64,000 bases of DNA, taken from assembly GCF_011045215.1 (NCBI RefSeq), contig NZ_CP049201.1, one strand, 5' to 3'. The notes under the pieces were generated by a model, which was given only the letters and a program-made list of their open reading frames with translations, was not told the origin of the DNA and did no database searches. Below are positions 5,945 through 31,194 of this stretch, piece by piece. The DNA comes from Escherichia coli. Its GTDB lineage: Bacteria; Pseudomonadota; Gammaproteobacteria; Enterobacterales; Enterobacteriaceae. The position numbers and the translations under genes are program-made. Each line of letters opens with the position of its first letter. Within the stretch, counting starts at the first letter, position 1.

Positions 5945-6895
5945 TTATAGTTTGGCGGCAAGAAGATCTTCCAGTTTGCGTTGATCAACGGCGAACAGAC
6001 GAATGCCTTCAGACAGTTTTTCTACCGCCATCGCATCCTGATTGTGCTCCCAACGGAACTCCGCTTCGCTCATGGGAGCTGGGCGTGGGAACGTCTGAGA
6101 AGGTGGGATTAATTTACGTACCACTGGCGAAACTTTTTCCTGCAGCTCCTTCAGCAAATTCGGTGCGATAGTCAGTCGATCGCAGCCGGTTAAGGCGAGG
6201 ATTTGTTCGGTGCGACGGAAGCTCGCGCCCATCACAATGGTTTCATAGTGGTGTTGCTTATAGTAGTCGTAGATATTGCGCACCGATTTAACGCCCGGAT
6301 CTTCTTCCACCACATATGGGTCCATCGGCTTGCGTGCCTGATACCAGTCATAAATACGCCCGACAAACGGCGAAATCAGAAAAACGCCCGCTTCTGCACA
6401 GGCCCGCGCCTGTGCAAAAGAAAACAGCAGCGTCAGGTTGCAGTTAATACCTTCTTTTTCCAGCTCTTCTGCCGCGCGAATTCCTTCCCAGGTCGAAGCC
6501 AGTTTGATCAGAATGCGTGATTTCTCAACGCCTTGTTGCTGATACAAGTCCACCAGATGGCGCGCCTTCTCAATACTCTTTTCTTTATCAAAAGAGAGGC
6601 GTGCATCAACTTCTGTTGACACGCGACCGGGTACGATTTTGAGAATTTCAGCACCGAAATTGACCGCCAGTTTGTCACACGCTGCGACCACCTGTTGTTC
6701 CTGGGTCTTGCCATTTTTTTTACCCCAGGCGATAGCATCGTCTATTAAATGCTCATATTGTGATAATCCGGCAGCCTTGAGTAACAGCGAAGGATTGGTG
6801 GTGGCATCCTGGGGATGATAATGGCGAATGGACTCAATATCGCCGCTGTCTGCCACGACAGTGGTGAACTGTTTGATGCCGTCTAACTCGTTCAT
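5945..6895 (-). CDS. talA: Transaldolase A
   Basis: 316-aa ORF immediately upstream of tktB on the same strand; transaldolase family sequence. Confidence 0.9.
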
Positions 6896-7183
6896 AGGAA
6901 ATACTCCTTGAAAAGTAAAGTGTTAGATGAGTGCGTTAATTCACACTTCTGAGAAATTTCGCTAAACGCATCAAAAAAGCATAGCAGACAGGCATGGTAT
7001 TGCTGGATTAAGCAGGTAACATCAGTGTTATAGGATTATTACCAAAACATTATATTAATGGTGAGAGTTTGGACTTGCTCAAAGTCTGTAGACTCCGGCA
7101 AGGTAATAATGTGCGCCACGTTGTGGGCAGGGGCTGTTGCCCACACACTTTATTTGTGAACGTTACGTGAAAGGAACAACCAA

Positions 7184-17452: not shown

Positions 17453-18679
17453 ATGGGAATTAACGAAATCATCATGTACATCATGATGTTCTTTATGCTG
17501 ATAGCTGCCGTAGACAGGATCCTGTCGCAGTTCGGCGGTTCTGCTCGTTTCCTCGGTAAGTTCGGTAAAAGTATCGAAGGATCAGGCGGTCAGTTCGAAG
17601 AAGGCTTTATGGCAATGGGCGCACTGGGCCTGGCGATGGTCGGTATGACCGCGCTGGCACCGGTACTGGCTCACGTACTCGGGCCGGTAATTATCCCGGT
17701 TTACGAAATGCTCGGCGCAAACCCGTCAATGTTCGCCGGAACGCTGCTGGCGTGCGATATGGGCGGCTTCTTCCTCGCCAAAGAGCTGGCGGGCGGCGAC
17801 GTAGCAGCGTGGCTATACTCTGGGTTAATTCTCGGGTCGATGATGGGGCCAACGATTGTGTTTTCCATTCCGGTGGCGCTCGGCATTATCGAACCTTCTG
17901 ACCGTCGTTATCTGGCGCTCGGCGTGCTGGCGGGCATTGTGACCATTCCGATTGGTTGTATCGCTGGTGGTCTGGTAGCTATGTACTCCGGTGTGCAGAT
18001 CAACGGCCAGCCGGTGGAATTCACTTTCGCCCTGATCCTGATGAACATGATCCCGGTGATCATTGTTGCGATTCTGGTGGCGCTGGGGCTGAAATTCATC
18101 CCGGAAAAAATGATCAACGGCTTCCAGATCTTCGCCAAATTCCTCGTTGCATTGATCACCCTCGGTCTTGCCGCTGCGGTAGTGAAATTCCTGCTTGGCT
18201 GGGAACTGATCCCCGGTCTGGATCCTATCTTTATGGCCCCTGGCGATAAACCCGGTGAGGTGATGCGCGCCATTGAAGTTATCGGTTCTATCTCCTGCGT
18301 TCTGTTAGGGGCGTATCCGATGGTGCTGCTGCTGACCCGCTGGTTTGAAAAACCGCTGATGAGCGTCGGTAAAGTGCTGAATATGAACAACATCGCGGCA
18401 GCCGGCATGGTGGCAACGCTTGCCAACAACATCCCGATGTTCGGCATGATGAAGCAGATGGATACCCGCGGCAAAGTCATCAACTGCGCCTTCGCCGTTT
18501 CTGCTGCTTTCGCCCTGGGCGACCACTTAGGGTTCGCCGCTGCCAACATGAATGCCATGATCTTCCCGATGATTGTCGGCAAGTTGATCGGCGGCGTAAC
18601 GGCGATTGGCGTGGCGATGATGCTGGTGCCAAAAGACGACGCGACCGCAGCTAAAACCGAAGCGGAGGCACAATCGTGA
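17453..18679 (+). CDS. eutH: Ethanolamine permease EutH
   Basis: 408-aa highly hydrophobic multi-pass membrane ORF in eut operon. Confidence 0.9.
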   Translation: MGINEIIMYIMMFFMLIAAVDRILSQFGGSARFLGKFGKSIEGSGGQFEEGFMAMGALGLAMVGMTALAPVLAHVLGPVIIPVYEMLGANPSMFAGTLLACDMGGFFLAKELAGGDVAAWLYSGLILGSMMGPTIVFSIPVALGIIEPSDRRYLALGVLAGIVTIPIGCIAGGLVAMYSGVQINGQPVEFTFALILMNMIPVIIVAILVALGLKFIPEKMINGFQIFAKFLVALITLGLAAAVVKFLLGWELIPGLDPIFMAPGDKPGEVMRAIEVIGSISCVLLGAYPMVLLLTRWFEKPLMSVGKVLNMNNIAAAGMVATLANNIPMFGMMKQMDTRGKVINCAFAVSAAFALGDHLGFAAANMNAMIFPMIVGKLIGGVTAIGVAMMLVPKDDATAAKTEAEAQS

Positions 18680-20079
18680 ACACTCGCCAGCTACTGAGCG
18701 TCGGTATCGATATCGGCACTACCACCACCCAGGTGATTTTCTCCCACCTGGAACTGGTTAACCGTGCGGCGGTGTCGCAGGTGCCGCGCTACGAATTCAT
18801 CAAACGCGAAATTAGCTGGCAAAGCCCGGTGTTCTTTACCCCTGTCGATAAACAGGGTGATTTAAAAGAAGCGGAACTGAAATCGCTGATTTTAGAGCAA
18901 TATCAGGCTGCGGGCATTGCACCGGAAAGCGTTGATTCTGGTGCCATCATCATCACCGGTGAAAGCGCGAAAACCCGCAATGCTCGCCCGGCGGTGATGG
19001 CGCTCTCTCAGTCGCTGGGCGATTTTGTCGTTGCCAGCGCCGGGCCGCACCTCGAATCCGTGATCGCCGGTCACGGAGCCGGGGCACAAACCCTTTCTGA
19101 ACAACGGCTGTGTCGGGTACTGAATATCGACATCGGCGGTGGCACCGCGAACTACGCCCTGTTCGATGCCGGAAAAATCAGCGGCACTGCCTGCCTCAAC
19201 GTCGGTGGTCGCCTGCTGGAAACCGACAGCCAGGGGCGCGTGGTTTACGCTCATAAACCGGGGCAGATGATTGTGGATGAGTGCTTCGGCGCAGGCACCG
19301 ACGCCCGTTCGCTGACCGGCGCGCAGCTGGTGCAGGTTACCCGGCGGATGGCAGAGCTGATTGTCGAAGTGATTGACGGAACGCTCTCGCCGCTCGCGCA
19401 GGCATTGATGCAAACCGGTTTGCTGCCCGCAGGTGTTACGCCCGAAATCATTACGCTTTCTGGCGGCGTGGGCGAATGTTATCGCCACCAGCCCGCCGAC
19501 CCGTTCTGTTTTGCCGATATTGGCCCGCTTCTGGCAACGGCGCTGCATGACCATCCGCGCCTGCGTGAGATGAACGTGCAGTTTCCGGCGCAAACCGTGC
19601 GTGCCACGGTGATTGGCGCGGGGGCACATACCCTTTCGCTCTCTGGCAGCACAATCTGGCTTGAGGGCGTACAACTGCCGCTGCGCAATTTGCCGGTGGC
19701 GATCCCGATTGATGAAACGGATCTGGTGAGTGCCTGGCAACAGGCGCTGATTCAACTGGATCTTGATCCCAAAACTGACGCGTACGTGCTGGCGCTTCCC
19801 GCCTCGCTGCCTGTGCGTTACGCCGCGGTACTGACGGTCATCAACGCGTTGGTCGATTTCGTCGCGCGTTTTCCGAATCCGCATCCCCTGCTGGTGGTGG
19901 CCGGGCAGGACTTTGGTAAAGCTCTGGGCATGTTGTTGCGCCCACAGCTACAACAACTCCCGTTGGCAGTCATTGACGAAGTGATTGTCCGCGCGGGGGA
20001 CTATATCGACATTGGTACGCCTCTTTTTGGCGGATCGGTTGTGCCGGTGACGGTGAAATCACTCGCATTTCCTTCCTGA
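18676..20079 (+). CDS. eutA: Ethanolamine ammonia-lyase reactivase EutA
   Basis: 467-aa ORF, 4-nt overlap with eutH; eut operon synteny; followed by the inserted element. Confidence 0.9.
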   Translation: MNTRQLLSVGIDIGTTTTQVIFSHLELVNRAAVSQVPRYEFIKREISWQSPVFFTPVDKQGDLKEAELKSLILEQYQAAGIAPESVDSGAIIITGESAKTRNARPAVMALSQSLGDFVVASAGPHLESVIAGHGAGAQTLSEQRLCRVLNIDIGGGTANYALFDAGKISGTACLNVGGRLLETDSQGRVVYAHKPGQMIVDECFGAGTDARSLTGAQLVQVTRRMAELIVEVIDGTLSPLAQALMQTGLLPAGVTPEIITLSGGVGECYRHQPADPFCFADIGPLLATALHDHPRLREMNVQFPAQTVRATVIGAGAHTLSLSGSTIWLEGVQLPLRNLPVAIPIDETDLVSAWQQALIQLDLDPKTDAYVLALPASLPVRYAAVLTVINALVDFVARFPNPHPLLVVAGQDFGKALGMLLRPQLQQLPLAVIDEVIVRAGDYIDIGTPLFGGSVVPVTVKSLAFPS

Positions 20080-20172
20080 ATACTGTAGTTATCAGGCGTG
20101 GCGCTGGGTTGCGGGGTGTTAGTGGGATTATATCCGGCTGTGTATCCGGTCGGGGTGATTGGTCTGTATAGC

Positions 20173-20194
20173 AAAACCCGGCGCGGGGCCGGGT
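20173..20194 (-). terminator. Intrinsic terminator (minus-strand orientation)
   Basis: On minus strand reads ACCCGGCCCCGCGCCGGGTTTT: GC stem CCCGGC/GCCGGG followed by U-run, 7 nt after stop of the 20201-20761 gene; identical copy at 21822-21843. Confidence 0.6.
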
Positions 20195-20200
20195 GAACTA

Positions 20201-20761
20201 TCATTCAGGGAACAAGTTGATTTGAAGCAAACTGCCAATGTATTTACCAGTGCTTTTAATTTTTCGCTTTGATGGCTTACACGAATTCAGGTTGACACCA
20301 GCCTGGCTAGATATTGGCTTGTATTGCCGCTCCGCCAGTACGATCAGGTCTGCCGCGTCTTTTAGCTTTCCATCGTTAGCCAGTTCCAATGCTCGATCCG
20401 CCATTTGCCCGCATTGTTGAATCAGCTTAAGTTGCGATACCTCCAGTCGCAATTGCTGGATTCGTTCTACCACTTTCGCCCTAATGCGCTTAGTTTCACG
20501 CATTCCCATTCTTAATGCCTGGTTGCCAGTAAGTGAGTAAACCTCTTTTTCTTTCCTGAAGTTTGCGGCTTTACCGTCAGCTTGGACGCGCATTTTATGC
20601 GCTTCCAAGAATTCGCCCTCCAATTCATCCCTGATCTTCGCGTTGAATCTGTCGTTCTTGAGTTCATTTAACCCTTCCGCCTTGCGGATCTGGTTGATTA
20701 ACTCCAACAATTCATCACTGCGGATACGCCACTCGCTATCAACCTGTACCAAGTCAAACAT
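20201..20761 (-). CDS. Hypothetical phage protein (186 aa from ATG with GGGAG RBS; coiled-coil, possibly regulatory)
   Basis: ORF with good RBS upstream of internal ATG at 20761 (track start 20854 is TTG); no confidently recognised domain. Confidence 0.55.
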   Translation of the reverse strand: MFDLVQVDSEWRIRSDELLELINQIRKAEGLNELKNDRFNAKIRDELEGEFLEAHKMRVQADGKAANFRKEKEVYSLTGNQALRMGMRETKRIRAKVVERIQQLRLEVSQLKLIQQCGQMADRALELANDGKLKDAADLIVLAERQYKPISSQAGVNLNSCKPSKRKIKSTGKYIGSLLQINLFPE

Positions 20762-20924
20762 GTTGTTGCTCCCGTTTTGCTGCCATAGGGCAACGGCTCG
20801 CCAGCCTTTATCACCTCCTTTAGTTGTTGCGATTCTTAACTGAATGGTTATCAAAACGCTGCGTTAATATCATTGATATGTATCAAATTTGTTTTGTGAC
20901 GCGACAATGCCTTGTGAATATCAA

Positions 20925-20949
20925 TAAAAAACCCAGCGCTATGGCTGGG
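20925..20949 (-). terminator. Intrinsic terminator (minus-strand orientation)
   Basis: Minus strand CCCAGCcatagcGCTGGG followed by UUUUUU, 45 nt downstream of stop of 20995-21723 gene. Confidence 0.5.
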
Positions 20950-20994
20950 CTTCTCTTGATGGCTGGTTTTGTAGCTAATCGTTGGCTTTAAGGG

Positions 20995-21723
20995 TTAAGC
21001 AACAATATTAATCCCGCTCCTTGTCGCTGCCTCTTTGGCAATTTTCCCCTCGTCCTCCAGTTTAGCTAACGCCTTGTACATCCAGTGGCGGCCCGGTGCG
21101 CCATGCAGCTTGCCATCTTTGCCGATCTTACCGAACGCATGTAACGCCAAATCGTCGATAGTCCCCTTGTATCCGCCTTGCTCCTTAAGCCATTGCTCAA
21201 GCTGTTCTACTTTGAATTTTGCCGGACGTCCGCCAGCCGCTTTTTGTTGTTTAGCTGGTTCTTCTGCAATATCGCTTTTGTTGTTTAAGTCCGTCATGAC
21301 TGGTTCTCCTACAATAGCGTCGCCCTTGGTCTCGATTTGTTGATTAACTGGTTTGTCTACAATATCGATTTTGTTGTTTAGCTGGTTTTTCAACATATCA
21401 ATCTCAGCCTTTAGCGCCTCGTTTTCTCTGGCTAGTTCTTCGCAACGCTTGATAAATTTTTGTTCCATGCCGTCCGGGCTATCAACGTGCGCCGTACCCA
21501 TTACGATCTTCCCGTTGCTATCGAAGATGACAGCTTGCCAACCGACTGCGGCGAGCATTTTAAACACATCATCAGCGGTCTTGTTTGTTGTATCGCGACG
21601 CCCTTTAAACTTGTGGCTAGCAGCGCCTTTGCCTTTGAAGCCCATTGCCTCAGCGACATCTTGCCGCGTCATCTTGCGAGCGCGCTTGTTCATGCCTAAC
21701 TCAACCCAATCCATGTATTCCAT
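20995..21723 (-). CDS. Hypothetical phage protein with internal tandem peptide repeats (242 aa)
   Basis: ORF with GAGGT RBS; DNA and protein contain imperfect tandem repeats (LNNKIDIVDKPVNQQ / LNNKSDIAEEPAKQQ); basic N-terminal region possibly DNA-binding. Confidence 0.6.
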   Translation of the reverse strand: MEYMDWVELGMNKRARKMTRQDVAEAMGFKGKGAASHKFKGRRDTTNKTADDVFKMLAAVGWQAVIFDSNGKIVMGTAHVDSPDGMEQKFIKRCEELARENEALKAEIDMLKNQLNNKIDIVDKPVNQQIETKGDAIVGEPVMTDLNNKSDIAEEPAKQQKAAGGRPAKFKVEQLEQWLKEQGGYKGTIDDLALHAFGKIGKDGKLHGAPGRHWMYKALAKLEDEGKIAKEAATRSGINIVA

Positions 21724-21821
21724 ACATTACCTCATTTTGTCGCTAAACGTTTTGCTTTCTAATTTATCAACAAAAAAGCGGGTGATGGTAGCCGCTTTGA
21801 TGGGGAAGTTGACAGGGATCA

Positions 21822-21843
21822 AAAACCCGGCGCGGGGCCGGGT
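21822..21843 (-). terminator. Intrinsic terminator (minus-strand orientation), identical copy of 20173-20194
   Basis: Same 22-bp sequence aaaacccggcgcggggccgggt; 18 nt downstream of stop of AlpA-like gene 21861-22091. Confidence 0.6.
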
Positions 21844-21860
21844 ATTAGCAAGTTAGATGA

Positions 21861-22091
21861 TTACTGGGTATCGCTGTCAGAAAGTAGTCCAATTGATTTA
21901 AAGAATTTCATCACATCCTGATAGCGATACATGACGCCCCGCCCGGTTCCCAGCACATCAACAGGGTCGGGGAATGGAGTTCCGTTCTGTTCCCATTTCT
22001 TACGCCACGAATAAAACGTTCCCCTGCTAATTCCGCCCAGCATCCGGCAGATGGCAGGGCGGCTAAGAAGGATTACTTCATTTTTATCCAT
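21861..22091 (-). CDS. AlpA-family phage transcriptional regulator / excisionase-like HTH protein (76 aa)
   Basis: Motif LSRPAICRMLGGISRGTFYSWRKK...FPDPV typical of AlpA/Xis-type HTH; GGGAGA RBS. Confidence 0.6.
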   Translation of the reverse strand: MDKNEVILLSRPAICRMLGGISRGTFYSWRKKWEQNGTPFPDPVDVLGTGRGVMYRYQDVMKFFKSIGLLSDSDTQ

Positions 22092-22110
22092 TGTTTAATC
22101 TCCCGTGTGT

Positions 22111-22299
22111 TTATTTTGCGTAGATTAAGGCAAATGCTCTTTTGGCTTTGCTTAGTTCGTATTCGCGTTTTTCTATGATTGCCATCAGTTCTTGTGCGGT
22201 GGCTGGCACGCCCGCTCTTATCAGCGCAATCTTAGTATCCATAGCGCACACTCTTTCACGCACCATATCGAAGATAATTTCCGCTCTATCGTGTTTCAT
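22111..22299 (-). CDS. Small hypothetical protein (62 aa)
   Basis: ORF with strong GAGGTGA RBS 5 nt upstream of ATG; 19 bp upstream of AlpA-like gene, likely co-transcribed. Confidence 0.5.
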   Translation of the reverse strand: MKHDRAEIIFDMVRERVCAMDTKIALIRAGVPATAQELMAIIEKREYELSKAKRAFALIYAK

Positions 22300-22648
22300 G
22301 ATTTCACCTCATATTTGTTGCTAAACCTTGTAAACCCTTGTTTGACTACAAAATACACCTGGTTAAGCGACTGATAAAATGATTTAGGTCAATTTATTGG
22401 TTGATGATTTATGTCTGATTGGATTTGTCTACAAATGGCAGGTTAGTCAACAAATGATGAAACCAGGGAATGGCGGTTATAATGTCAGCGGGGATTGTGA
22501 GAAAGGCCCGGGTAGGTTGCTAACTGCCTGGGCCTTTATTTTTGGCGCGTGTACGTGAAATCTGGAAAATTTGCAGGGTAGTTGTTGAGGGATTTTTCGC
22601 GTAGGAGCGTGAAGGGTCCGCCAGTCATCGCCCTGACGTAGCGGTGAA

Positions 22649-23050
22649 TTACTTGCGAGGCTCACCCATCGGCCAGGCACCTTCATTGCGACGATAACCA
22701 ATCCGGTACTCTTCCGGCAGCGGCAAGCCCTGCTCACGATATGGACGCAGATCGAAGCCAAAAACAGGATCGTCGTCGTAGGCGAGGAATAGCCCGGCAG
22801 GCTCTGCCACGCGTTCGATAATCAGTTCCCCATCTTCAACGAAGAAGATCAGATTATCGCGAAAGTCCGTTACCTCACTGACGTGATAACATTCGGCATG
22901 TGCGTCCAGCCAGGCTTCTCGGTATTCCTGAATCTCGGCTTCTGACCATGTTGAAACAGGACGCTCCCAAATTCCCAGGCTGGATTTGCCCTGGCGGGAG
23001 AATAATTTTGCCTCTTTGCTCTGCTCTGGTTTTCTGTTTAAAAAGCTCAT
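22649..23050 (-). CDS. Hypothetical protein (133 aa)
   Basis: ORF with AAGGAGAA RBS; no recognised domain. Confidence 0.55.
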   Translation of the reverse strand: MSFLNRKPEQSKEAKLFSRQGKSSLGIWERPVSTWSEAEIQEYREAWLDAHAECYHVSEVTDFRDNLIFFVEDGELIIERVAEPAGLFLAYDDDPVFGFDLRPYREQGLPLPEEYRIGYRRNEGAWPMGEPRK

Positions 23051-23186
23051 TATTCTTCTCCTTTGAACGGATTGTTCTTGCTCTCTAATAACTTAGCGCG
23101 ACCCAGTAACGTCCGGGCAAGCGCCTCCGCCTTCCTTAGCCTAAGCCCTGCGTCTTCTGCGTCCAGATCTACATTCCTGATAGCCT

Positions 23187-23450
23187 CTACAGCCTGCTCC
23201 GCTGCGTCCGGGCGTGAATCCACTTAAATATGCCGATATGCTCACGAAAGTCTGGATGCTCATATTGCCAGCGGCAGATTGTTCTGAAGCTCGGCATGTC
23301 AGGCATGTTGCCAATCTCTCTGAGACTATGGCCTTCAGCTACCAGCAAGCAGATTTCTTCAGCGATAGCGACCCCATACTTAGCGCTTTTTCTGCTTAAA
23401 CTTGTGACATCAACAGGTAAGTTATTGATTTCTTTATCATCACCCTTCAT
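23187..23450 (-). CDS. Small HTH protein resembling the DNA-binding domain of phage terminase small subunits (87 aa)
   Basis: Motif AEGHSLREIGNMPDMPSFRTICRWQYEHPDFRE resembles TerS-type HTH; GGGGGTAA RBS; family assignment is from memory and tentative. Confidence 0.4.
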   Translation of the reverse strand: MKGDDKEINNLPVDVTSLSRKSAKYGVAIAEEICLLVAEGHSLREIGNMPDMPSFRTICRWQYEHPDFREHIGIFKWIHARTQRSRL

Positions 23451-23525
23451 AATTACCCCCGAATTGATAGCGAATTGATAGCGAATTACCCCGAATTACC
23501 CCCGAATTACCCCCGAATCACCATC
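23451..23525. repeat. Tandem array of about 6.5 copies of an 11-bp unit (AATTACCCC(C)G x4 and AATTGATAGCG x2)
   Basis: Directly visible: aattaccccc g aattgatagc g aattgatagc g aattacccc g aattaccccc g aattaccccc g aatcaccatc, exactly filling the gap between the 93-aa gene stop and the 87-aa gene start. Confidence 0.85.
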
Positions 23526-23527
23526 AT

Positions 23528-23809
23528 TTAACCCTCGCCTACGTCTGCGTCGATGCTTGCTAACTGGCTGTGTAGATCGCGTTCAATCATTTTTACCTTT
23601 TTCACAAAATCCCTTTCCTCGGCGGTGGCGGGCGCGCCCTGGGCTATGTTTTTCGTGAGGTCGTGGAAAGTGCCGAAAACATAAAGGGAGAACAGCCTTA
23701 ATTGTTGCCGCTTCATTGGCAAATCACTGTTGCTATGTTTGATCTCAGCGACGCCTTTCGAAATAACACGGGCCATCCCATGACAAATTCTTAACGTAAG
23801 CGCAGACAT
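23528..23809 (-). CDS. Hypothetical protein (93 aa)
   Basis: ORF with GGGGAG RBS; no recognised domain. Confidence 0.5.
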   Translation of the reverse strand: MSALTLRICHGMARVISKGVAEIKHSNSDLPMKRQQLRLFSLYVFGTFHDLTKNIAQGAPATAEERDFVKKVKMIERDLHSQLASIDADVGEG

Positions 23810-23930
23810 GATATTTACTCCCCGACTGGTATAATGAACGTGGTTTTAAACGTTGCTATTTGCTAACCATTTAATCTGTTAACTCAATTTCGCATTGTTG
23901 GCCCGGCACGAACACCGGGCTTTTCTTTAC

Positions 23931-24272
23931 CTATTCGAAATAGCTTCCAATATCCGGTGTCCGGGTATCAGTTTTCCGGGTCGGCTCGAAGTACGATTCC
24001 AGATCCGGCGTTTTCGGCCCACGCTGGGCGTTGGCGGCGGGTTGCTTTTCTTCTGGCTGTTCCGGCTGTTTACTACCAAATCGGCGCTCCAGTTGGTCCA
24101 TCAGCACTACCATCATTTCCTGGACCAGCTTTTCATCGGCTTTATCAAGGTTCTCCAATACCATCGCCATCCCTTTGCGGAATTTAAGCTCAGCGTCGTC
24201 CGGTTCCGGTGCTGATTCGTTTGCTTTAACTGCCAGGGCGATCCGGCGTTTTGCTTCATCCAAAAAATTCAT
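23931..24272 (-). CDS. Hypothetical acidic protein ending in repeated SYFE motif (113 aa)
   Basis: ORF with GGGGGAA RBS overlapping stop of upstream gene; C-terminus ...DLESYFEPTRKTDTRTPDIGSYFE. Confidence 0.5.
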   Translation of the reverse strand: MNFLDEAKRRIALAVKANESAPEPDDAELKFRKGMAMVLENLDKADEKLVQEMMVVLMDQLERRFGSKQPEQPEEKQPAANAQRGPKTPDLESYFEPTRKTDTRTPDIGSYFE

Positions 24273-24277
24273 TTTGT

Positions 24278-24721
24278 TTATTCCCCCATGTGGAAATAGT
24301 CATCTAAGCGGCGATTAAACTCGTCGCTGCCATCGAAATATTCACGGATACTTTTATTGACCAGATCATCACCGTCGAAATACTGGCGCGTGAAATCGTC
24401 CAATTCCCCATCGAAGTATTGACGTGTGAAATCGTCTAATTCCCCTTCAAAATATTGACGCGCATCAGGCGCTCTGTTTGGCGCTGTAGCAATCTCAGAT
24501 TGATTGCCCTGTAACTTATCGACGTTTGCTAAATACACGCCCAGTGAGCTGTTTGTTCCCATTACCGCAAGCATTTTCCGGCGATCTGCCATGTTCGGCG
24601 CGAGCGATGATAATTGAGCTTTAATTTTGTCCACTTCCTGATTAACAATACGGTCAATCAGTGGTTGATTCGTGCGAATAATTTCCTGTGCCAACTGGCG
24701 AATATATTCTTTGCGTGTCAT
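24278..24721 (-). CDS. Hypothetical protein with C-terminal tandem RQYF(D/E)GELDDFT repeats (147 aa)
   Basis: ORF with GGAGAT RBS; encoded by about 3.5 tandem 36-bp DNA repeats near 24330-24465. Confidence 0.55.
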   Translation of the reverse strand: MTRKEYIRQLAQEIIRTNQPLIDRIVNQEVDKIKAQLSSLAPNMADRRKMLAVMGTNSSLGVYLANVDKLQGNQSEIATAPNRAPDARQYFEGELDDFTRQYFDGELDDFTRQYFDGDDLVNKSIREYFDGSDEFNRRLDDYFHMGE

Positions 24722-24739
24722 TTCTTATCTCCGTTCATC

Positions 24740-25123
24740 TCATTTCTGTAAAAAACCCATACCGTGGCCCAGGCGATTTGAAATTTTCCCGGCAAGCATC
24801 CGGCGAATATGTTTTTCGTTGATGATGTCGTGAGTGACCGGATCTTCACCTTTCATACATTCCGGCATCTGGTCAAACAATACGGAAGCGCCTTCATCAA
24901 TAATCTCAGTTAAGACTGCTGGCAGCATATTAATGATGCGTTCTGCTTCGTCGTTCATTGCTTTATCGAACGCTTTTTTATCCATTGCTTCGGCGGATGG
25001 TTTGTAATTGTCGCCAGTCAGGTTAAGGTAAGTGTTGTTTGGGTGATACATGGCATTCACTCCTTTTACTTTGATTGTTGCGATTTCTTTGTTTTTGTTA
25101 ATTGTGGTGCCTTTGACTTTCAT
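24740..25123 (-). CDS. Hypothetical protein (127 aa)
   Basis: ATG overlaps stop of HNH gene (ATGA), suggesting translational coupling; no recognised domain. Confidence 0.5.
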   Translation of the reverse strand: MKVKGTTINKNKEIATIKVKGVNAMYHPNNTYLNLTGDNYKPSAEAMDKKAFDKAMNDEAERIINMLPAVLTEIIDEGASVLFDQMPECMKGEDPVTHDIINEKHIRRMLAGKISNRLGHGMGFLQK

Positions 25124-25539
25124 GCTGCTTCTTCCTTCAATAATTGTGGCAATTTGCCTGTTAGTTCGATTTCTTCATTAATAGATGCAAGTAACTGTCT
25201 CAGTTTGCGATGTAATAGCTGGTGACGCTCTCTCGGCATTTTTACCAGGTTGCTTAAGCGGTTATTCTGCGGATCGTAGTCCCGGTGATGGATATCATAT
25301 TTTCGCTCATCGTAAACACCGTAGCACCATAACCAGGCAGCCTTTTCTATTGTCATGCAGGTACGTTTTCCGTTGCTTAAACAAATGGTTATACTCAGGT
25401 GACCGCGATGTTTTTCGTTTAAGCTGCCTTTAATTACCTGGCCTGTGCTGCGGTTGTGAAATAAACCAGTTTCAGGGTCGTAGTGATATTTCTGTCGTAA
25501 TATATCAACTGATAACCGTAGTCTTGTAAGATTGTCCAT
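25120..25539 (-). CDS. HNH homing-type endonuclease (139 aa)
   Basis: Motif YDIHHRDYDPQNNRLSNLVKMPRERHQ (HH...N...N...H) typical of phage HNH nucleases; GAGGTAG RBS. Confidence 0.7.
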   Translation of the reverse strand: MDNLTRLRLSVDILRQKYHYDPETGLFHNRSTGQVIKGSLNEKHRGHLSITICLSNGKRTCMTIEKAAWLWCYGVYDERKYDIHHRDYDPQNNRLSNLVKMPRERHQLLHRKLRQLLASINEEIELTGKLPQLLKEEAA

Positions 25540-25571
25540 GATGTTCTACCTCAATGTGATTGCTGTGTTAA

Positions 25572-25757
25572 TTATCTTTCTTCTTGTGGCCTATTCAGCC
25601 AGGCCTCGATCTCGCTACGCCAGAATAATAAACGACAATTTCGCGGCGTAAATGGTTGGGGTATTGTCTTATCTTTTAATAGCCATCTTCGAATCGTTCT
25701 TGTTGATACCCCCGCTATTAATGCGAAAGCTCGCAGATCTATAACTTCATCTCTCAT
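25572..25757 (-). CDS. AlpA-like HTH regulator (61 aa from ATG with GAGGT RBS)
   Basis: Sequence LIAGVSTRTIRRWLLKDKTIPQPF...WRSEIEAWL matches AlpA/Xis-type HTH pattern; track ORF start 25862 is a TTG extension. Confidence 0.55.
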   Translation of the reverse strand: MRDEVIDLRAFALIAGVSTRTIRRWLLKDKTIPQPFTPRNCRLLFWRSEIEAWLNRPQEER

Positions 25758-26537
25758 GTTCTTACCTCGATTAAAAAGGACCGCCCCCAGGGAAAGAAGA
25801 AAGAGGAAAGAGGAAAGAGGAAAAACTTCCTGGAGGCGGGTAATTCGGATTCCTTGAATCAATATCCCATGTGATACTTAATATTATAAAGGGCGGCGGG
25901 CTATGTCGCTATTTTTGCCATAGTGTGACACCATTAATTTATTAACAAAAAGTGCTATTTATTAAATCTTTTTTCGGCAGGTGCAAGAAAAATAATTGCG
26001 ACACGGTAGGGTAGCGGGCGATAATAATCATGTAAGGAGTAGCCACCTTACGCCTCCAAATGTGATCGATAAAAATAATAGTCTCAATTCTTTCTCCCGC
26101 TTCTCGGCGGTTTTTTTGCCTGCAATCACACATCAAAAAAACACATCGAATTGATATGCCTTTAAAACGCAATATAACGCATTTTGACGGCCTTAATTTT
26201 TGCCTATCCACTCGGAAGCGTAAGCCTGTTTTGATTCGTCTGGCGTGGAATGGTGCGGCGGTAATATCAGATCTCAGCGTTCTGTGTGGTGGGATGGAAT
26301 AGCCTGGCAGGATCTGCGTGTGATTTCATTCATCCAACCTTGGATGAATGGTCCGATCTGGTCAGTAGTCCGGCACAAATAAAAAGCGCCTGCGGGCGTA
26401 GCAGACGCTTTGTGTACAGGCTTATCAGTACGGGATGTGCACGAATGATTATACCACCCTCAGAAAAACGTTTGCTTTTGCACTTAAACGGATAAGTGGT
26501 ATTTCTTGGTCTTCATTGGTTTTAGCTCACCATAGGC

Positions 26538-26765
26538 TCATTTAGGTGCGCCCCTGTCGATAATTCGGTACATGTTCTCGGTATATCTCCCGTTAATCAC
26601 CGTTCTGGTAACAACAATCACACCGTTTTCCTCCAGAAAGGCAATGGCCCGCTTCACTCCCTGGCGGCTTACACCGGATAGCTGCGCCAGCCTGTCAATG
26701 GAGATGTTGTATTTGTCCGGCTGGCTTGTCAGGATCTGGAATACCGCTCGTGCTGTTTTCGTCAT
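26538..26765 (-). CDS. Small winged-helix DNA-binding protein (75 aa), candidate regulator
   Basis: Sequence ISIDRLAQLSGVSRQGVKRAIAFLEENGVIV has HTH character; divergent from the plus-strand cassette; RBS weak. Confidence 0.45.
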   Translation of the reverse strand: MTKTARAVFQILTSQPDKYNISIDRLAQLSGVSRQGVKRAIAFLEENGVIVVTRTVINGRYTENMYRIIDRGAPK

Positions 26766-27037
26766 GGCAAAAACTCATTGAAATTGGATACCCTTAGAAC
26801 GCTCTCAAACGCTCCGTAATGCGATGAGAATTTTACCTAAGCAAGTGTAGCTCTTTATTAGTTTTATGATGCCGTAGGCCGATAGAAGGTGCGCTCTCTG
26901 AAGTTTCATTGTCTATCAGTGGTGGGTAATGCTGCCTTTACTATTGGCGTCAAGAAAATCACTGGTGTAGATTGGGCGAATAGTTTACTATTCAAACAAG
27001 GCACAATGGCCTTAGCGGATTGATGTCAGGAGATACC

Positions 27038-27385
27038 ATGTCAAAAATAGTTACTTTGTTTGCGACTAAGCGAGAAGGGAAATCCCTTTCTGTGCGCACT
27101 CGTAAGCCAAAAGCTATGACTGGCTTGCGTAAAACAAATCGTCTGACGCATCTTGACGCGTTAGCGTATCGACTAGGATACCAGTTGGTGCGCGGTAAAA
27201 GTGTCATGTTTCGCTACACTGCTACTCTCGATCACGAAGAAAACAAAGTGATGAATGCGGCCTCGCCTATGGCTGTACCACGAGTAAAAAAAATGACGTT
27301 CACACAAGCGTGTGATTTATCAAAAGATTTATTCGATTCACGAGAAGAACGCTTAAAGAGTGTAAGCTTTGATGGTCCAGAATGA
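27038..27385 (+). CDS. Basic 115-aa protein, candidate partner (antitoxin or regulator) of downstream YafO-like gene
   Basis: ATG at 27038 preceded by AGGAGA RBS; stop overlaps start of next gene by 14 nt; basic N-terminus and acidic C-terminus; no recognised family. Confidence 0.5.
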   Translation: MSKIVTLFATKREGKSLSVRTRKPKAMTGLRKTNRLTHLDALAYRLGYQLVRGKSVMFRYTATLDHEENKVMNAASPMAVPRVKKMTFTQACDLSKDLFDSREERLKSVSFDGPE

Positions 27386-27887
27386 ATTTATTGGTAAGGT
27401 CTACAGTGATAACAAGTTTAAAACAAACGATGAATTAAAGAGCTTTAAGGATTCGTTTATTTATCATTGGAGATATGGACATCATCCTGATTTTGGAAAG
27501 GATACTCTTTTCCATAAACCCCCGTGTGTATATCCTATCCATTTACGTAAAGTCCATGTAAATATTGGTCTTTATACCAATCAGTACGGCTATAGCGGGA
27601 CAGAACAATGCTGGGATGACTGGTCTACTGGTCGTTATGGTCCCGGTGGTTTCGAAAAAGTTACCCCTACATCTGATGCTTATCTTATATACGCTGTATG
27701 TAAAAATAGAAATGCTGGCGTGTTAGACTTCTGGTTTCCTCCCGCACACAAAAACGCTGAGTTCGAATCCTCTGTACAGTTTGTGGCTGAGATGGCTGAT
27801 AAGTTTTATGAGTCTATCAAGGCGGACCCGATGCCGCGCGATCAGAATCCTTGGCATACGGGGTATATAGTTAAAAAACCAGCCTGA
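27372..27887 (+). CDS. YafO-family toxin-like protein (171 aa)
   Basis: Motifs F-I-Y-H-W-R-Y-G...PDFGKDTLF, YPIHLRKVHVN and SDAYLIYAV line up with recalled YafO motifs (FISYKRDG...PDIFGRDALY, ERVAHIHLAN, DEAHLVYCQG); similarity judged from memory, not computed. Confidence 0.45.
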   Translation: MVQNEFIGKVYSDNKFKTNDELKSFKDSFIYHWRYGHHPDFGKDTLFHKPPCVYPIHLRKVHVNIGLYTNQYGYSGTEQCWDDWSTGRYGPGGFEKVTPTSDAYLIYAVCKNRNAGVLDFWFPPAHKNAEFESSVQFVAEMADKFYESIKADPMPRDQNPWHTGYIVKKPA

Positions 27888-28438
27888 TCCACGCAATACT
27901 GATTGTTTTTGGCCTTGTATGGTGTGGTCTGATTTGAGGCAAAATTATTTAATCCCTTAAAAAACTAACTTCAAAAGACTAAAACCAGGGGGATGGTCCC
28001 TCTCGCTCCGCTCCAGGTACCATCCCTGTCGGGATGGGTTTATTGTAGAGTTAAAATTAATTACTCACATCGTCACACCTTGCGAAAGTTTTGCTCAATT
28101 ATCATTCAAACATAGCACAAAAAATATTCGATTTAGTTAGTGTGCACTGACTTTTTTATCAATTTACTTTCATTCGAAAGTCATGGGTTAAATATTAATC
28201 ATCTGGCTGTGGCACGCATGGATTCACCGAGGGTATTTTGGACCATTTGGTCAAAATTCATAAGTACATGATTTCATGGTGATTTATTTTTCTGTATCTT
28301 GCTTTCATTCGAAAGTGGAAACGAAGAATTGGCAATTTATTGATTCAGATCATTGACATTGCATATTTGTGGCGGTTGTCACGGTTGTTTTTTGAGCGCT
28401 TCAACCGTCGATATTGAGTATAAACCCGGCCTTATAGT

Positions 28439-29644
28439 TCACGGTTCAAGTGGATTACCGTCACCAGCCAATATTGAATCAATAGCGTCGGCGTAATCCT
28501 GCATCATTGCTCGCCGTTGCTTCAGGTAGGCCGCCTGGTTATAAACGCCGCGCACACCTTTCGGGACGTGGGCCAATTGGATTTCGATCCAGTCTGGTGA
28601 GTATCTGCCAGACTCATTAAGCGCCGTTGAAAAGGTGGTCCGCCAGCCATGACCAGTGGCAATGGATTTATAGCCGATCCTCTCAAGCGCCTTCAGTATC
28701 GCGCTGGCTGAAAGTGGCTTATCCATGAATCGACCAGGGAAGACGAAAGCACTGTATCCGCTCCTTGTAAACTGGTCCTGTAATAGCTCCACCGCCTGCC
28801 GTGATAGCGGGACCACATGCGGGCGGCGGGCCTTCATGACTTCAGCGGGCAATGTGATTGTTGCGTCCTCCAGGTTTATCCATTCCCAACGGCACAAACG
28901 CAGTTCTGCGGTCCTTAATGCCGTTAATATAAGCAAACGTATTGCCGTCTGAATCTGGACGCTCCCGGCCCTCTCAAGGGCTTTGTAGAAGGCCGGAATT
29001 TCACTAATCGGTATCCACGCGTTGTGACCAGGTCGGCGGGCCTTCAGTGCCGTATCAAGATCTGCAACCGGATTCCTCGTTACCAGTTCGGTGATAACGG
29101 CAAACTTGAAGATCTCACCGATGCGCTGGCGTAGCTTGCGGGCCTGCTCCGGTGCGGTACGTTCTTTCTTCTGGAGTAATGCCAGCACGTCACGGGCGGT
29201 TATATCGACAATCGACCGCTTGCCAAGTACCGGATAGACGTCTTTTTCTAGGGCCGATCTGACCTGTTTTGCATAGGATTCCGACCACCCTCCAACCCTA
29301 GTAGCAAACCAGTCTTCCGCCACCTTCTTAAATCCTGCCGCCATGTTGAGCGCATCAATGGCTTTTTCCTTGCGGGCTTGTTCCACTGGGTTAATTCCAT
29401 TGGCAATAAGGGATCTGCTCTCCGTGGCGCGCCTGCGTGCTTCTTTGAGTGTGATTAGCGGGTAAACACCAATAGCCTGCAAAAACTCTCGTTTATTCAA
29501 CCAATACCTGAATCGCCAGTATTTCGAACCGTTGGGATGCACCAGCAAAAACAGCCCCGGCGTCAGTGAATCGGTGAGTTTATAGGGCTTGTCCTGCGGC
29601 TGTGCGGCGTCTATGGCCTTTGCTGTGAGTGGTGTCTTGCTCAA
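28439..29644 (-). CDS. intZ: Tyrosine-type site-specific integrase (prophage integrase)
   Basis: 401-aa ORF with phage integrase features (N-terminal arm-binding domain, C-terminal catalytic region with ...HGWRTT...); sits at the element end beside eutB as intZ does in E. coli K-12; start appears to be TTG. Confidence 0.8.
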   Translation of the reverse strand: MSKTPLTAKAIDAAQPQDKPYKLTDSLTPGLFLLVHPNGSKYWRFRYWLNKREFLQAIGVYPLITLKEARRRATESRSLIANGINPVEQARKEKAIDALNMAAGFKKVAEDWFATRVGGWSESYAKQVRSALEKDVYPVLGKRSIVDITARDVLALLQKKERTAPEQARKLRQRIGEIFKFAVITELVTRNPVADLDTALKARRPGHNAWIPISEIPAFYKALERAGSVQIQTAIRLLILTALRTAELRLCRWEWINLEDATITLPAEVMKARRPHVVPLSRQAVELLQDQFTRSGYSAFVFPGRFMDKPLSASAILKALERIGYKSIATGHGWRTTFSTALNESGRYSPDWIEIQLAHVPKGVRGVYNQAAYLKQRRAMMQDYADAIDSILAGDGNPLEP

Positions 29645-29832
29645 AACCGGATACCTTGATTTAACGACTGGATAACCCCGATCATGTATCCGGCGCGTTC
29701 GGTTGCGTTCGGCAGGATAAGTAACGGGCGTATTAAGTGGAACACCTTACAGGACAAGGGCTAACGATGAAATAGAATTGTTTGCAGGCTGTGAGAAATG
29801 TTAATCGTCACTTCTTCCTGAGGGAACGACTT

Positions 29833-31194
29833 ATGAAACTAAAGACCACATTGTTCGGCAATGTATATCAGTTTAAGGATGTAAAAGAGGTGCTGGCTAA
29901 AGCCAACGAACTGCGTTCGGGGGATGTGCTGGCGGGCGTCGCAGCGGCAAGCTCACAGGAGCGCGTGGCGGCAAAGCAGGTGTTGTCGGAAATGACCGTA
30001 GCGGACATCCGCAATAATCCGGTGATTGCCTATGAAGATGACTGCGTGACGCGGCTGATTCAGGACGATGTTAACGAAACGGCCTACAACCAGATTAAAA
30101 ACTGGAGCATCAGCGAACTGCGTGAGTATGTGCTGAGCGATGAAACCAGCGTGGACGACATTGCCTTTACCCGCAAAGGGCTGACCTCGGAAGTGGTCGC
30201 GGCGGTAGCGAAGATTTGCTCCAACGCGGACCTGATCTACGGCGCGAAGAAAATGCCGGTAATCAAAAAGGCCAATACCACCATCGGTATTCCGGGCACC
30301 TTCAGCGCCCGTTTGCAGCCAAATGACACTCGTGACGACGTGCAAAGTATCGCCGCGCAAATCTACGAAGGGCTTTCCTTCGGGGTGGGCGATGCGGTGA
30401 TCGGCGTTAACCCGGTGACTGACGACGTGGAAAACTTAAGCCGCGTGCTGGATACCATTTATGGCGTGATCGACAAATTCAACATCCCAACTCAGGGCTG
30501 CGTACTGGCGCACGTCACCACTCAGATCGAAGCGATTCGTCGTGGCGCACCAGGCGGGCTGATTTTCCAGAGTATCTGTGGCAGTGAAAAAGGGCTGAAA
30601 GAGTTTGGCGTGGAACTTGCGATGCTCGACGAAGCGCGCGCAGTGGGTGCAGAGTTCAACCGTATCGCCGGGGAAAACTGCCTCTACTTCGAAACCGGAC
30701 AAGGTTCAGCGCTATCCGCTGGCGCTAACTTCGGCGCAGACCAGGTGACGATGGAAGCACGTAACTATGGGCTGGCGCGTCATTACGATCCGTTTATCGT
30801 CAACACCGTGGTCGGCTTTATTGGGCCGGAGTATCTCTACAACGACCGCCAGATTATCCGTGCGGGCTTAGAAGATCACTTTATGGGCAAGCTGAGCGGC
30901 ATCTCTATGGGCTGTGACTGCTGTTACACCAACCACGCTGACGCTGACCAGAACCTCAACGAAAACCTGATGATCCTGCTCGCCACCGCAGGCTGCAACT
31001 ACATCATGGGGATGCCGTTGGGCGATGACATCATGCTCAACTACCAGACCACGGCCTTCCACGACACTGCCACTGTGCGTCAGTTACTCAACCTGCGCCC
31101 GTCACCGGAGTTTGAACGCTGGCTGGAAAGCATGGGCATTATGGCAAACGGTCGCTTGACCAAACGGGCGGGCGATCCGTCACTGTTCTTCTGA
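29833..31194 (+). CDS. eutB: Ethanolamine ammonia-lyase large subunit
   Basis: 453-aa product from ATG at 29833 (MKLKTTLFGNVYQFKDVKEV...); EutB family. Confidence 0.9.
   Translation: MKLKTTLFGNVYQFKDVKEVLAKANELRSGDVLAGVAAASSQERVAAKQVLSEMTVADIRNNPVIAYEDDCVTRLIQDDVNETAYNQIKNWSISELREYVLSDETSVDDIAFTRKGLTSEVVAAVAKICSNADLIYGAKKMPVIKKANTTIGIPGTFSARLQPNDTRDDVQSIAAQIYEGLSFGVGDAVIGVNPVTDDVENLSRVLDTIYGVIDKFNIPTQGCVLAHVTTQIEAIRRGAPGGLIFQSICGSEKGLKEFGVELAMLDEARAVGAEFNRIAGENCLYFETGQGSALSAGANFGADQVTMEARNYGLARHYDPFIVNTVVGFIGPEYLYNDRQIIRAGLEDHFMGKLSGISMGCDCCYTNHADADQNLNENLMILLATAGCNYIMGMPLGDDIMLNYQTTAFHDTATVRQLLNLRPSPEFERWLESMGIMANGRLTKRAGDPSLFF

Follow-up and report, generated by a model that had tools for sequence, protein, structure and literature searches.

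Five closely packed minus-strand genes, at positions 23931-25757 of a 64,000-nucleotide (nt) stretch of the Escherichia coli contig NZ_CP049201.1 (hereafter the window), are the subject of this work. They encode a small AlpA-like regulator, an HNH nuclease and three proteins, g3, g4 and g5, whose open reading frames (ORFs) measure 127, 147 and 113 amino acids (aa). The explanation that we favour, though with slightly less than even confidence, is that these genes form the promoter-proximal part of an AlpA-led operon in a satellite-like island of the family of CPZ-55, a cryptic element of E. coli K-12, and that they would serve the hijacking of a helper phage or the packaging of the island by a mechanism that we infer below.

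A conserved operon on three backbones

The operon recurs on three kinds of backbone: islands with an IntZ-type integrase, islands with a different tyrosine integrase, and circular elements of 8-9 kb with a resolvase and a Rep or primase gene. Its order is an AlpA-like gene, in many copies an HNH_3 nuclease gene, a g3-like gene, one or more genes for proteins with Tyr-Phe (YF) dipeptides, a YffM-like gene, repeats of 10-11 bp, a gene for a small terminase subunit (TerS) of the Sf6 type, and a gene for a coupled protein. Within a sample of 33 loci that was neither random nor fully non-redundant, and of which 32 were informative for the HNH gene, every locus has a g3-like gene followed within 1.3 kb by a protein with two to five YF dipeptides. 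Related loci usually continue from the YF-repeat protein with a YffM-like gene, phased repeats and an Sf6-type TerS gene.

Many homologues of g4 and g5 come from contigs of 8-9.5 kb. Four such contigs carry genes for an HTH_17 protein, an HNH_3 nuclease of 172-192 aa, g3, g4, g5 and a protein resembling g6, the 93-aa YffM-family protein encoded after g5, together with a TerS of the Sf6_terminase type in three of the four. A small serine recombinase is present in all of them, and each also encodes either a Rep-like HTH_36 protein or a DUF5906 primase-like protein. The whole contigs L017-L020 and L026-L027 (8.2-9.2 kb) come from independent E. coli assemblies and metagenomes and combine this operon with a small serine recombinase gene and with Rep-like (HTH_36) or primase-like (DUF5906) genes; the maps of L018 and L019 are circular permutations of that of L020, whose ends overlap by 30 nt and in which about 1.45 kb without called genes stands between the Rep genes and the operon. 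A related record of 8,009 bp (L025, NZ_CP062859.1) was deposited as an E. coli plasmid. Judging from these maps, the 8-9 kb elements may be plasmid-like satellites.

The arrangement extends to three relatives with less than 50% identity, each of which lies directly after an HNH_3 gene, itself preceded in two of the three by a gene for a small AlpA-like helix-turn-helix (HTH) protein. Small helical proteins follow and then, at the terS position, a small HTH protein that is marked as an Sf6-type TerS in two of the three cases. The backbones of these divergent relatives are resolvase/DUF5906 contigs or islands with a different tyrosine integrase. CPZ-55 of K-12 keeps only the part of the operon with the homologues YffM, YffO and YffP, and has no AlpA-like gene, HNH gene or g3-g5. 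The open-access literature that we searched holds no account of this family, of YF-motif proteins or of the function of the CPZ-55 genes (YffM, YffO, YffP), and nothing pertinent on SpLE2 or on plasmid-borne satellites.

The five genes and their expression signals

The five genes (coordinates in Table 1) are separated by 32, -4, 18 and 5 nt, with a Shine-Dalgarno-like purine run at each step. The AlpA-like stop is followed after 32 nt, which include GAGG, by the HNH ATG; the HNH TGA overlaps the next ATG in the tetranucleotide ATGA at 25120-25123; GGAG occurs within the 18 nt before the g4 gene; and the TAA of g4 stands 5 nt before the ATG of g5, with GGGGGA upstream of that TAA. The sequence-only reading of this DNA had described the five ORFs at these coordinates correctly, whereas its account of the ATGA overlap needs the correction given below. 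A consensus scan of the coding strand found no terminator-like site between 23931 and 25757. Two promoter-like sites fall in the block, among nine in the scanned region, compared with 8.2 expected from shuffles.

Clustering at 90% identity yields 117 homologue clusters for g3, 339 for g4 and 260 for g5; those with a named source are almost all from Escherichia, all are labelled 'hypothetical' and none carries a Pfam domain. The ratio of nonsynonymous to synonymous substitution rates (dN/dS) against six relatives is 0.18-0.28 for g3, 0.12-0.28 for g4 and 0.12-0.23 for g5. Because of these cluster numbers and of ratios that lie between 0.12 and 0.28 throughout, comparative sequence evidence shows that g3-g5 are real genes under purifying selection and not chance ORFs.

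The first protein of the operon is assigned to the AlpA-like regulators by its position and size, which are those of AlpA, by a PHROG whose label reads 'excisionase and transcriptional regulator' and by an HTH_17 match (9.7e-4); Pfam Phage_AlpA itself is not matched. In most related loci a homologue of 61-69 aa stands at this place, and some of these homologues are unannotated and were detected by tblastn.

Proteins with short Tyr-Phe motifs

That g3, g4 and g5 match no known family, as the sequence-only reading had proposed, is borne out in Pfam, PHROGs, NCBIfam, PADLOC and PDB. PHROGs, NCBIfam and PADLOC (PADLOC-DB v2, with its known anti-phage defence systems) match neither g3-g6 nor the alternative YF proteins. 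PDB sequence searches returned nothing for the HNH protein, g4 or g5, and for g3 only compositional matches to designer helical repeats, with no stretch over threshold. Real relatives of g3 numbered only 12 in an exhaustive profile search among 1.84 billion representatives; they measure 57-107 aa, most of them 84-107 aa. The g5 clusters are all from E. coli.

The sole feature common to g3-g5 and to their substitutes elsewhere is a short motif centred on Tyr-Phe (Tyr-Leu in g3), with one copy in g3 near the N-terminus, five in g4 at a spacing of 12-14 residues and two in g5. In g3 the motif reads N-T-Y-L-N, elsewhere S-Y-F-Q, T-Y-F-D or F-D-G, and [ST]-Y-[FL] or F-D-G is kept across the g3 superfamily. 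Among 21 sequences the YF positions of g4 are invariant or nearly so, and homologues of g4 range from 135 to 156 aa, partly by the number of their 12-aa units. In g5, Y404/F405 and Y421/F422 (numbering of the fused alignment) are invariant, the second motif forming the last four residues of the protein. The variant proteins that replace g4 and g5 and carry the YF motif measure 180 aa, 81 and 146 aa (as a pair), 139, 126 and 76 aa. Both g4 and g5 have helical N-terminal halves and low-confidence tails, and the YF motifs sit on the flexible tails or termini of g3-g5. As candidate functions for the YF repeats, a beta-clamp-binding motif, mimicry of the C-terminus of the single-stranded DNA-binding protein SSB, and EF-hand-like calcium loops were considered and set aside, since the motif patterns do not fit.

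The putative packaging genes downstream

After g5 comes g6, a homologue of which tblastn finds in most related loci checked, and the spacer that follows g6, before terS, is filled with phased repeats. Arrays mostly of 10-11 bp also precede terS in ten related loci (L001, L002, L003, L008, L009, L012, L020, L023, L024 and L026); across loci they fall into four sequence types, and the repeats differ between TerS variants. A TerS ring would be expected to bind repeats that recur once in each helical turn. Because of this phasing we infer that the array is the element's own packaging site, and 23451-23527 as a candidate TerS recognition (pac-like) site.

The assignment of the TerS-like protein is based on a terminase small subunit PHROG (phrog_1482, 8e-12), on relatives that match Pfam Sf6_terminase PF20901 and on distant matches to annotated phage small terminases. 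The gene is intact in relatives. In the window, by comparison with L003 and L024, it is frameshifted: the intact L003 protein matches two different frames in tblastn, and the alignment reads GCCC-GGACG against GCCCAGGACG. A packaging link had been suggested beforehand from the TerS-like gene and the tandem array; the conserved module with repeats and an Sf6-type TerS supports it, but the terS of the window itself is split by the 1-nt deletion. In two related islands (L031 6915-7409 and L033 6917-7414) a peptidyl-prolyl isomerase (Pro_isomerase, 164-165 aa) is encoded within the operon, between g6 and terS.

The junction between the nuclease and g3

In a megablast of 23900-25900 against 5,426 complete E. 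coli genomes, 36 proved to carry the g3-g5 block. The nucleotide homology breaks off precisely where HNH and g3 meet: it ends at 25053, and the internal ATG at 25051 lies two bases past this end, with AAGGAG 7 nt upstream. Only two of the 117 g3 clusters have the 127-aa form, and most of the other 115 are of 103 aa and start at the internal ATG. RefSeq relatives are likewise annotated with 103 aa, and the protein of the window genome itself has 103 aa in GenBank and 127 aa in RefSeq. The 72-nt leader between the two starts matches, without g3, other E. coli genomes (most of 189 matching records), in which it opens a different gene of 108-111 aa; it is the 5' end of another gene family, of the type found in L004 and L005.

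Given the homology break and the other gene context of the leader, the ATGA seems to couple the HNH gene to a leader that recombination has fused in frame to g3, and comparison among the sequences indicates that direct HNH-g3 translational coupling is peculiar to the window variant. The overlap that had been pointed out between the two genes is therefore present, but it joins the nuclease to the leader and not to the conserved g3. Most relatives provide g3 with a ribosome-binding site of its own, at a distance of 65-85 nt from the upstream gene. The islands with a 131-aa HNH protein have at this place a 17-codon mini-ORF, MTKNVVDDFSVVKVSTNI (L001 8163-8228, with equivalents in L002, L006, L008, L012, L013 and L023), whose start codon shares an ATGA with the stop of the HNH gene and whose end leaves 13 nt to g3. 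This mini-ORF is a counterpart of the 24-codon in-frame leader of the window and may be a translational relay.

A facultative HNH_3 nuclease

In the HNH protein the motif H84-H85...N93...N97...H106, as read from the sequence, is intact. Besides the families of Table 1 it matches several HNH PHROGs and, weakly, the generic 'homing endonuclease' model of PADLOC (1.8e-5). At 90% identity its cluster has 19 members, all from E. coli; it is 38-44% identical to the 131-aa HNH of relatives, and its similarity to the proteins of 170-192 aa is weaker, so that at least three divergent HNH types occupy the slot. The gene lies directly upstream of the g3-like gene in 23 of the 32 informative loci, is decayed in one (L002) and is absent from eight (L003, L005, L009, L011, L014 and L015, as well as L010 and L025, where an unrelated 195-aa gene stands instead). 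On these counts HNH_3 is a frequent but facultative component of the operon. The module that the sequence-only reading had drawn around the HNH gene thus stands in part: the adjacency is common, and it is seen in all three deeply divergent members, but a quarter of the informative loci do without the nuclease.

These observations bear on an explanation that we hold to be possible, though not probable: the HNH gene would be a selfish, free-standing homing-type endonuclease lodged in the AlpA-g3 spacer with no role in the action of g3-g5, and the five-gene module would be a juxtaposition, with g3-g5 still being satellite proteins. The family itself speaks for it, since HNH_3 is the Pfam family of free-standing homing endonucleases, and terminase-associated HNH proteins such as HK97 gp74 fall in PF01844. 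The PADLOC match, the presence/absence polymorphism among otherwise colinear islands, the number of divergent types in the slot and the homology break at the HNH/g3 junction point the same way, and nuclease genes have been reported to mark recombination boundaries in phages (PMC10055350). One IntZ island (L034) also has a second HNH_3 gene (6636-7187, 183 aa) farther along the operon, in the interval from the YF protein gene to terS, which is consistent with HNH genes inserting at several spacers. On the other side, a Pfam search detected no DNA-targeting accessory domain in the protein, and its place upstream of g3-like genes, both in most informative loci and in every deeply divergent member, is more persistent than a transient invader would be expected to show. 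The evidence on the HNH gene is split: its family type, its polymorphism and its place at a junction lie on one side, and the persistence with which it keeps a single slot lies on the other. The prior interpretation is partly supported: the satellite-like, packaging-linked setting and the HNH adjacency in divergent relatives bear it out, and the HNH_3 type, the recombination junction and the facultative presence call for its correction.

The island and its decay in the window

The operon lies in a 9.7-kb IntZ island at the CPZ-55 site, bounded by eutA and eutB (Table 1), a location also seen in many other E. coli genomes. A search for flanking att repeats compared the two island ends and found no exact match of at least 10 nt. 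Annotated relatives and the tblastn map give a gene order that begins with the integrase, variable cargo (a YafO-type toxin, YffL), a small winged HTH (wHTH) gene and the AlpA-like gene; it continues with HNH or nothing, g3, g4, g5, g6, sometimes one extra gene, and the TerS-like gene (YffO family), and it ends with a coupled protein of 127-197 aa, sometimes a tail-completion gene, a 729-aa tape-measure protein, and Xis-like and HTH genes. Some part of the window island is matched by 455 genomes, and only one genome covers more than 80% of it; moreover, from locus to locus g3, g4 and g5 differ independently of one another in how closely they match the window. By these comparisons, the IntZ-type islands are highly mosaic.

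The closest complete relative of the window island (L003, NZ_CM143725.1 776172-789540; 83% coverage, 93.8% identity) delimits a clean deletion: in blastn, 22293-22626 corresponds to L003 2762-3091, and 22617-23600 to L003 5583-6568. The tape-measure protein of relatives (L002 3067-5256, L003 3115-5304) matches phrog_1538 (4e-96). Because terS is a pseudogene and some 2.5 kb including the tape-measure gene are gone, the window copy is probably not packaging-competent, and from its sequence the island is probably a decaying, non-autonomous copy. Relatives of 11-12 kb have a full-length tape-measure gene and sometimes a tail-completion (Neck1/HK97 gp10-like) gene, with no capsid, terL or lysis genes. 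The L003 island is inserted in yghO and not between eutA and eutB, so that this integrase type, 93% identical there, is found at more than one site.

Table 1. Features of the island and of the operon in the window
Feature	Positions	Strand	Remarks
AlpA-like small HTH regulator/excisionase, 61 aa	25572-25757	-	First gene of the operon; phrog_66, 1.5e-7; HTH_17 PF12728, 9.7e-4
HNH_3-type nuclease, 139 aa	25120-25539	-	Pfam HNH_3 PF13392, 1e-6, residues 72-107; phrog_99 HNH endonuclease, 9e-11
g3, 103-aa helical protein	24740-25051	-	N-terminal N-T-Y-L-N motif; conserved start ATG 25051; longest ORF (127 aa) 24740-25123
Leader, 72 nt, 24 codons MKVKGTTINKNKEIATIKVKGVNA	25052-25123	-	In-frame fusion to g3; HNH stop and leader ATG overlap (ATGA)
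g4, 147-aa acidic protein (isoelectric point, pI, 4.7)	24278-24721	-	Helical N-terminal half; five C-terminal YF motifs, Y at 90, 102, 114, 128 and 142
36-nt tandem repeat in g4, 2.4 copies	24375-24462		Encodes 12-aa unit ELDDFTRQYFDG; Tandem Repeats Finder score 127
g5, 113-aa acidic protein (pI 4.9)	23931-24272	-	Three N-terminal helices; Pro/Gln-rich tail; two SYF motifs, one at the extreme C-terminus
GC-rich hairpin	23900-23921		Just 3' of the g5 stop; no U-tract on the coding strand; scan reported + strand; homology to relatives includes the hairpin
g6, 93-aa YffM-family protein	23528-23809	-	Next conserved operon gene; 36-55% identity to K-12 YffM
Phased 11-bp tandem repeats ATTCGGGGGTA / ATTCGCTATCA	23451-23527		Fill the spacer before terS; Tandem Repeats Finder rows 23460-23522
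TerS-like gene (YffO family), pseudogene	23050-23450	-	Split into ORFs of 87 and 57 aa by a 1-nt deletion at about 23209/23210
Conserved protein, 133 aa	22649-23050	-	After terS, ATGA-type overlap; 98% identity to L003 protein; homologue after terS in L026
Deletion junction, 2.49 kb	22617-22626		Clean deletion; lost with it is the 729-aa tape-measure gene that relatives have
IntZ-type tyrosine integrase	28439-29644	-	eutB-proximal island end; phrog_1, 3.6e-68; 99% identity to K-12 IntZ
Island	about 20080-29781		eutA 18676-20079 on one side, eutB 29782-31194 on the other

Several features elsewhere in the island are worth recording. Adjoining the integrase, at 27020-27887 on the + strand, a 121-aa ORF overlaps a 172-aa protein (phrog_1651, 9e-43) whose relatives RefSeq annotates as YafO-family type II toxins; because other islands have YffL or other genes there, the slot looks like a cargo hotspot. 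At the eutA-proximal end (20201-21723), a 217-aa protein with weak anti-repressor (Ant) PHROG matches (1e-5) and a 242-aa HTH protein could be the helper-sensing or derepression genes of the element. A noncoding segment of about 220 bp at 26095-26316, which precedes the AlpA-like gene by 340-560 bp, shares 83% identity with the corresponding region of the circular L020; about 110 complete E. coli genomes match that L020 region, and the rows listed show no annotated feature there. This segment may be a regulatory region or an origin; an Rfam scan of the island, the segment included, returned nothing. Between it and the terminator of the 75-aa wHTH gene lies a perfect, operator-like 11-bp inverted repeat (26327-26350; CATTCATCCAA nn TTGGATGAATG), and a 7-bp tandem repeat, GGAAAGA, in 4.7 copies (25791-25823), stands 34-66 nt upstream of the AlpA-like start codon.

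Proposed mechanism and other explanations

If the operon does serve the exploitation of a helper, its parts might act as follows. A helper phage would induce the AlpA-like regulator, and the satellite TerS would then bind the phased repeats as its own packaging site. The proteins g3-g5 would be multivalent short-motif adaptors that dock on an oligomeric part of the helper (large terminase, portal, scaffold or capsid) or on the ring of the satellite TerS, and this docking would redirect assembly or packaging to satellite DNA. The HNH_3 protein would be a dispensable accessory, either an aid to site-specific cutting during packaging or a resident selfish nuclease. A bolder proposal, which we consider rather doubtful, goes further: CPZ-55 would be the stump of an undescribed family of phage satellites that exist both as islands and as circular replicons of 8-9 kb, their multivalent Tyr-Phe adaptors would capture an oligomeric assembly or packaging protein of the helper by a new hijacking mechanism encoded in the operon, and in the fuller islands a satellite tape-measure protein would re-tool the tail of the helper.

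In a tblastn search of 50,697 phage genomes, g3, g4 and g5 gave no match, and g4 has no relative in PLSDB or among IMG/VR viral contigs, an absence that is expected of satellite-specific genes. The IMG/VR miss also belongs, however, to a series of points that weigh against helper exploitation. The HNH_3 gene lies four genes from terS, and its Pfam family is presumably not that of the known terminase-associated HNH proteins. An AlphaFold2 (AF2) model of a Gly/Ser-linked g3-g4-g5 fusion, in which a complex was sought, gave no evidence of one (predicted local distance difference test, pLDDT, 43; predicted template modelling score, pTM, 0.20). No helper phage was identified, and the closest phage relatives of TerS and of the tape-measure protein are only 29-46% identical. 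Among the proteins of the IntZ island no primase or replicase was matched, and only the 75-aa wHTH fragment resembles the N-terminus of a replication initiator. Lastly, relatives carry tape-measure and tail-completion genes, which current satellite models hold to be phage hallmarks (PMC10085698), and on this account the backbone may have originated as a decayed prophage.

We judge it improbable that the operon, or the HNH gene with g3-g5, is an anti-phage defence or interference system, with the nuclease as effector and the YF proteins as sensors or regulators that recognise a phage structural protein. Defence genes are frequent in satellites and cryptic prophages, and HNH nucleases are common effectors. 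Proteins with multivalent motifs could bind phage oligomers, and satellite-encoded systems that block phage assembly are known, such as Tai (PMC11364771). However, PADLOC has no match for g3-g6 and offers only its weak homing-endonuclease model for the nuclease, and the genes belong to the core of every backbone, in synteny with terS, whereas the variable cargo (YafO-like toxin, YffL) sits beside the integrase. Since g3-g5 persist without HNH in eight loci, the nuclease cannot be their obligatory effector.

Quite improbable, too, is a role of g3-g5 in maintenance or regulation of the element, as cofactors of replication initiation, in partition or copy control of the plasmid-like form, or as cofactors of the AlpA-like protein. 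The IntZ islands have no recognisable replicase, the same genes occur on circular plasmid-like elements, and g3-g5 directly follow the regulator, all of which would suit such a role. But the circular elements carry their Rep (HTH_36) or primase-like (DUF5906) genes elsewhere, and g3-g5 are always colinear with terS and the repeats and are acidic, with no DNA-binding or NTPase signature among their sequence-library matches.

A last possibility, that the region holds no more than a functionless relic of a defective prophage with decaying ORFs, is already disfavoured and very improbable: the frameshifted terS, the 2.5-kb deletion in the window and the loss of the AlpA-like gene, HNH and g3-g5 from K-12 CPZ-55 would agree with it, but the low dN/dS of all three genes, their hundreds of intact homologue clusters and a gene order kept on three backbones, circular elements included, would not. 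Defence, maintenance and remnant are all less likely than the exploitation of a helper.

Significance

Should the helper-exploitation reading prove true, the cryptic K-12 element CPZ-55, with its genes for YffM, YffO and YffP, would gain a function and a place in a family. The reading would also reveal an E. coli satellite lineage without the hallmark primase, in which integrative islands and small circular replicons exchange a single packaging operon, and some members of which carry a phage tail gene, an exclusion criterion of current satellite detectors. The YF-repeat proteins offer a testable handle on how a satellite seizes its helper and may be a new class of interference proteins, and the HNH polymorphism is a natural experiment that sets a packaging cofactor against a selfish passenger.

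Comparison with known systems

Among the terminase-associated HNH nucleases of cos phages, the comparators are HK97 gp74 and the HNH of the Staphylococcus aureus phage phi12 used by SaPIbov5, which lie directly beside cos, terS and terL. The window protein shares with them its small size, its catalytic motif and an operon with a small terminase. In contrast, it is of the PF13392 type and is encoded upstream of g3-g6 and thus not adjacent to terS, in an island with no terL; the gene is absent from a quarter of related elements. To free-standing HNH_3 homing endonucleases of the I-HmuI kind it is likened by its HNH_3 domain, its sporadic presence between otherwise colinear alleles and its position at a mosaic junction. 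It differs from them in having no detected DNA-binding accessory domain and in a slot occupancy that is unusually persistent across deeply divergent elements.

Satellites interfere with or redirect their helpers by means of proteins such as Ppi and CpmA/B of the S. aureus pathogenicity islands (SaPIs), Rpp of E. coli phage-inducible chromosomal islands (PICIs), and Sid and Psu of P4. Like these, g3-g5 are small satellite-specific proteins encoded beside satellite packaging genes and putative binders of helper assembly or packaging proteins; unlike them, they have a multivalent Tyr-Phe architecture that is undescribed in any of these, and no similarity of sequence or fold was found. Searches of the family libraries found no homologues of ppi, rpp or cpm in the island. 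Of the P4-like core, only the integrase and the AlpA-like gene are present, with no PHROG or NCBIfam match to psu, delta, sid, alpha (primase) or epsilon.

The definition of capsid-forming PICIs (cf-PICIs) calls for terL, portal, protease, major capsid and head-tail connector genes and excludes tail genes (PMC10085698). The window island resembles them in its AlpA-led operon and in encoding its own HNH and TerS, but none of these head and terminase genes was found among its proteins, its relatives have a tail gene, and its HNH is an HNH_3 that does not abut terS. HNH has been noted as an occasional component of PICIs, and thousands of 'Type C' elements with int, AlpA and packaging genes have been put forward as candidate new families (PMC10085698).

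The nearest likeness is with the PICIs of Gram-negative bacteria (EcCICFT073, EcCIMP1): a size of about 10-12 kb, a terminal tyrosine integrase, a unidirectional operon opened by a small HTH gene, in the window one of putative AlpA type, and, in the window as in these PICIs, no capsid, large terminase or lysis genes. Of the packaging or interference genes of a PICI the element has a TerS-like gene, frameshifted in the window and intact in relatives. The family departs from Gram-negative PICIs in that no primase or replicase was detected, in that the libraries searched hold no described PICI interference protein corresponding to g3-g5 or to the YffM-like protein, in the tape-measure and tail-completion genes of relatives, and in sibling elements that are circular and have a resolvase instead of an integrase. 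By gene content, therefore, the element is most like a Gram-negative PICI, from which the lack of a primase sets it apart, and is neither a cf-PICI nor P4-like.

With CPZ-55 of K-12 (intZ, yffL-yffS) the window island shares the integration site, a nearly identical integrase, and the correspondence of YffM with g6 and of YffO with the TerS-like protein; it keeps the AlpA-like gene, HNH and g3-g5, and it has neither the tape-measure gene nor a functional terS. Together these elements make up a candidate for a new family of satellites, marked by a protein module not recognised before, and the copy in the window is probably a decaying one.

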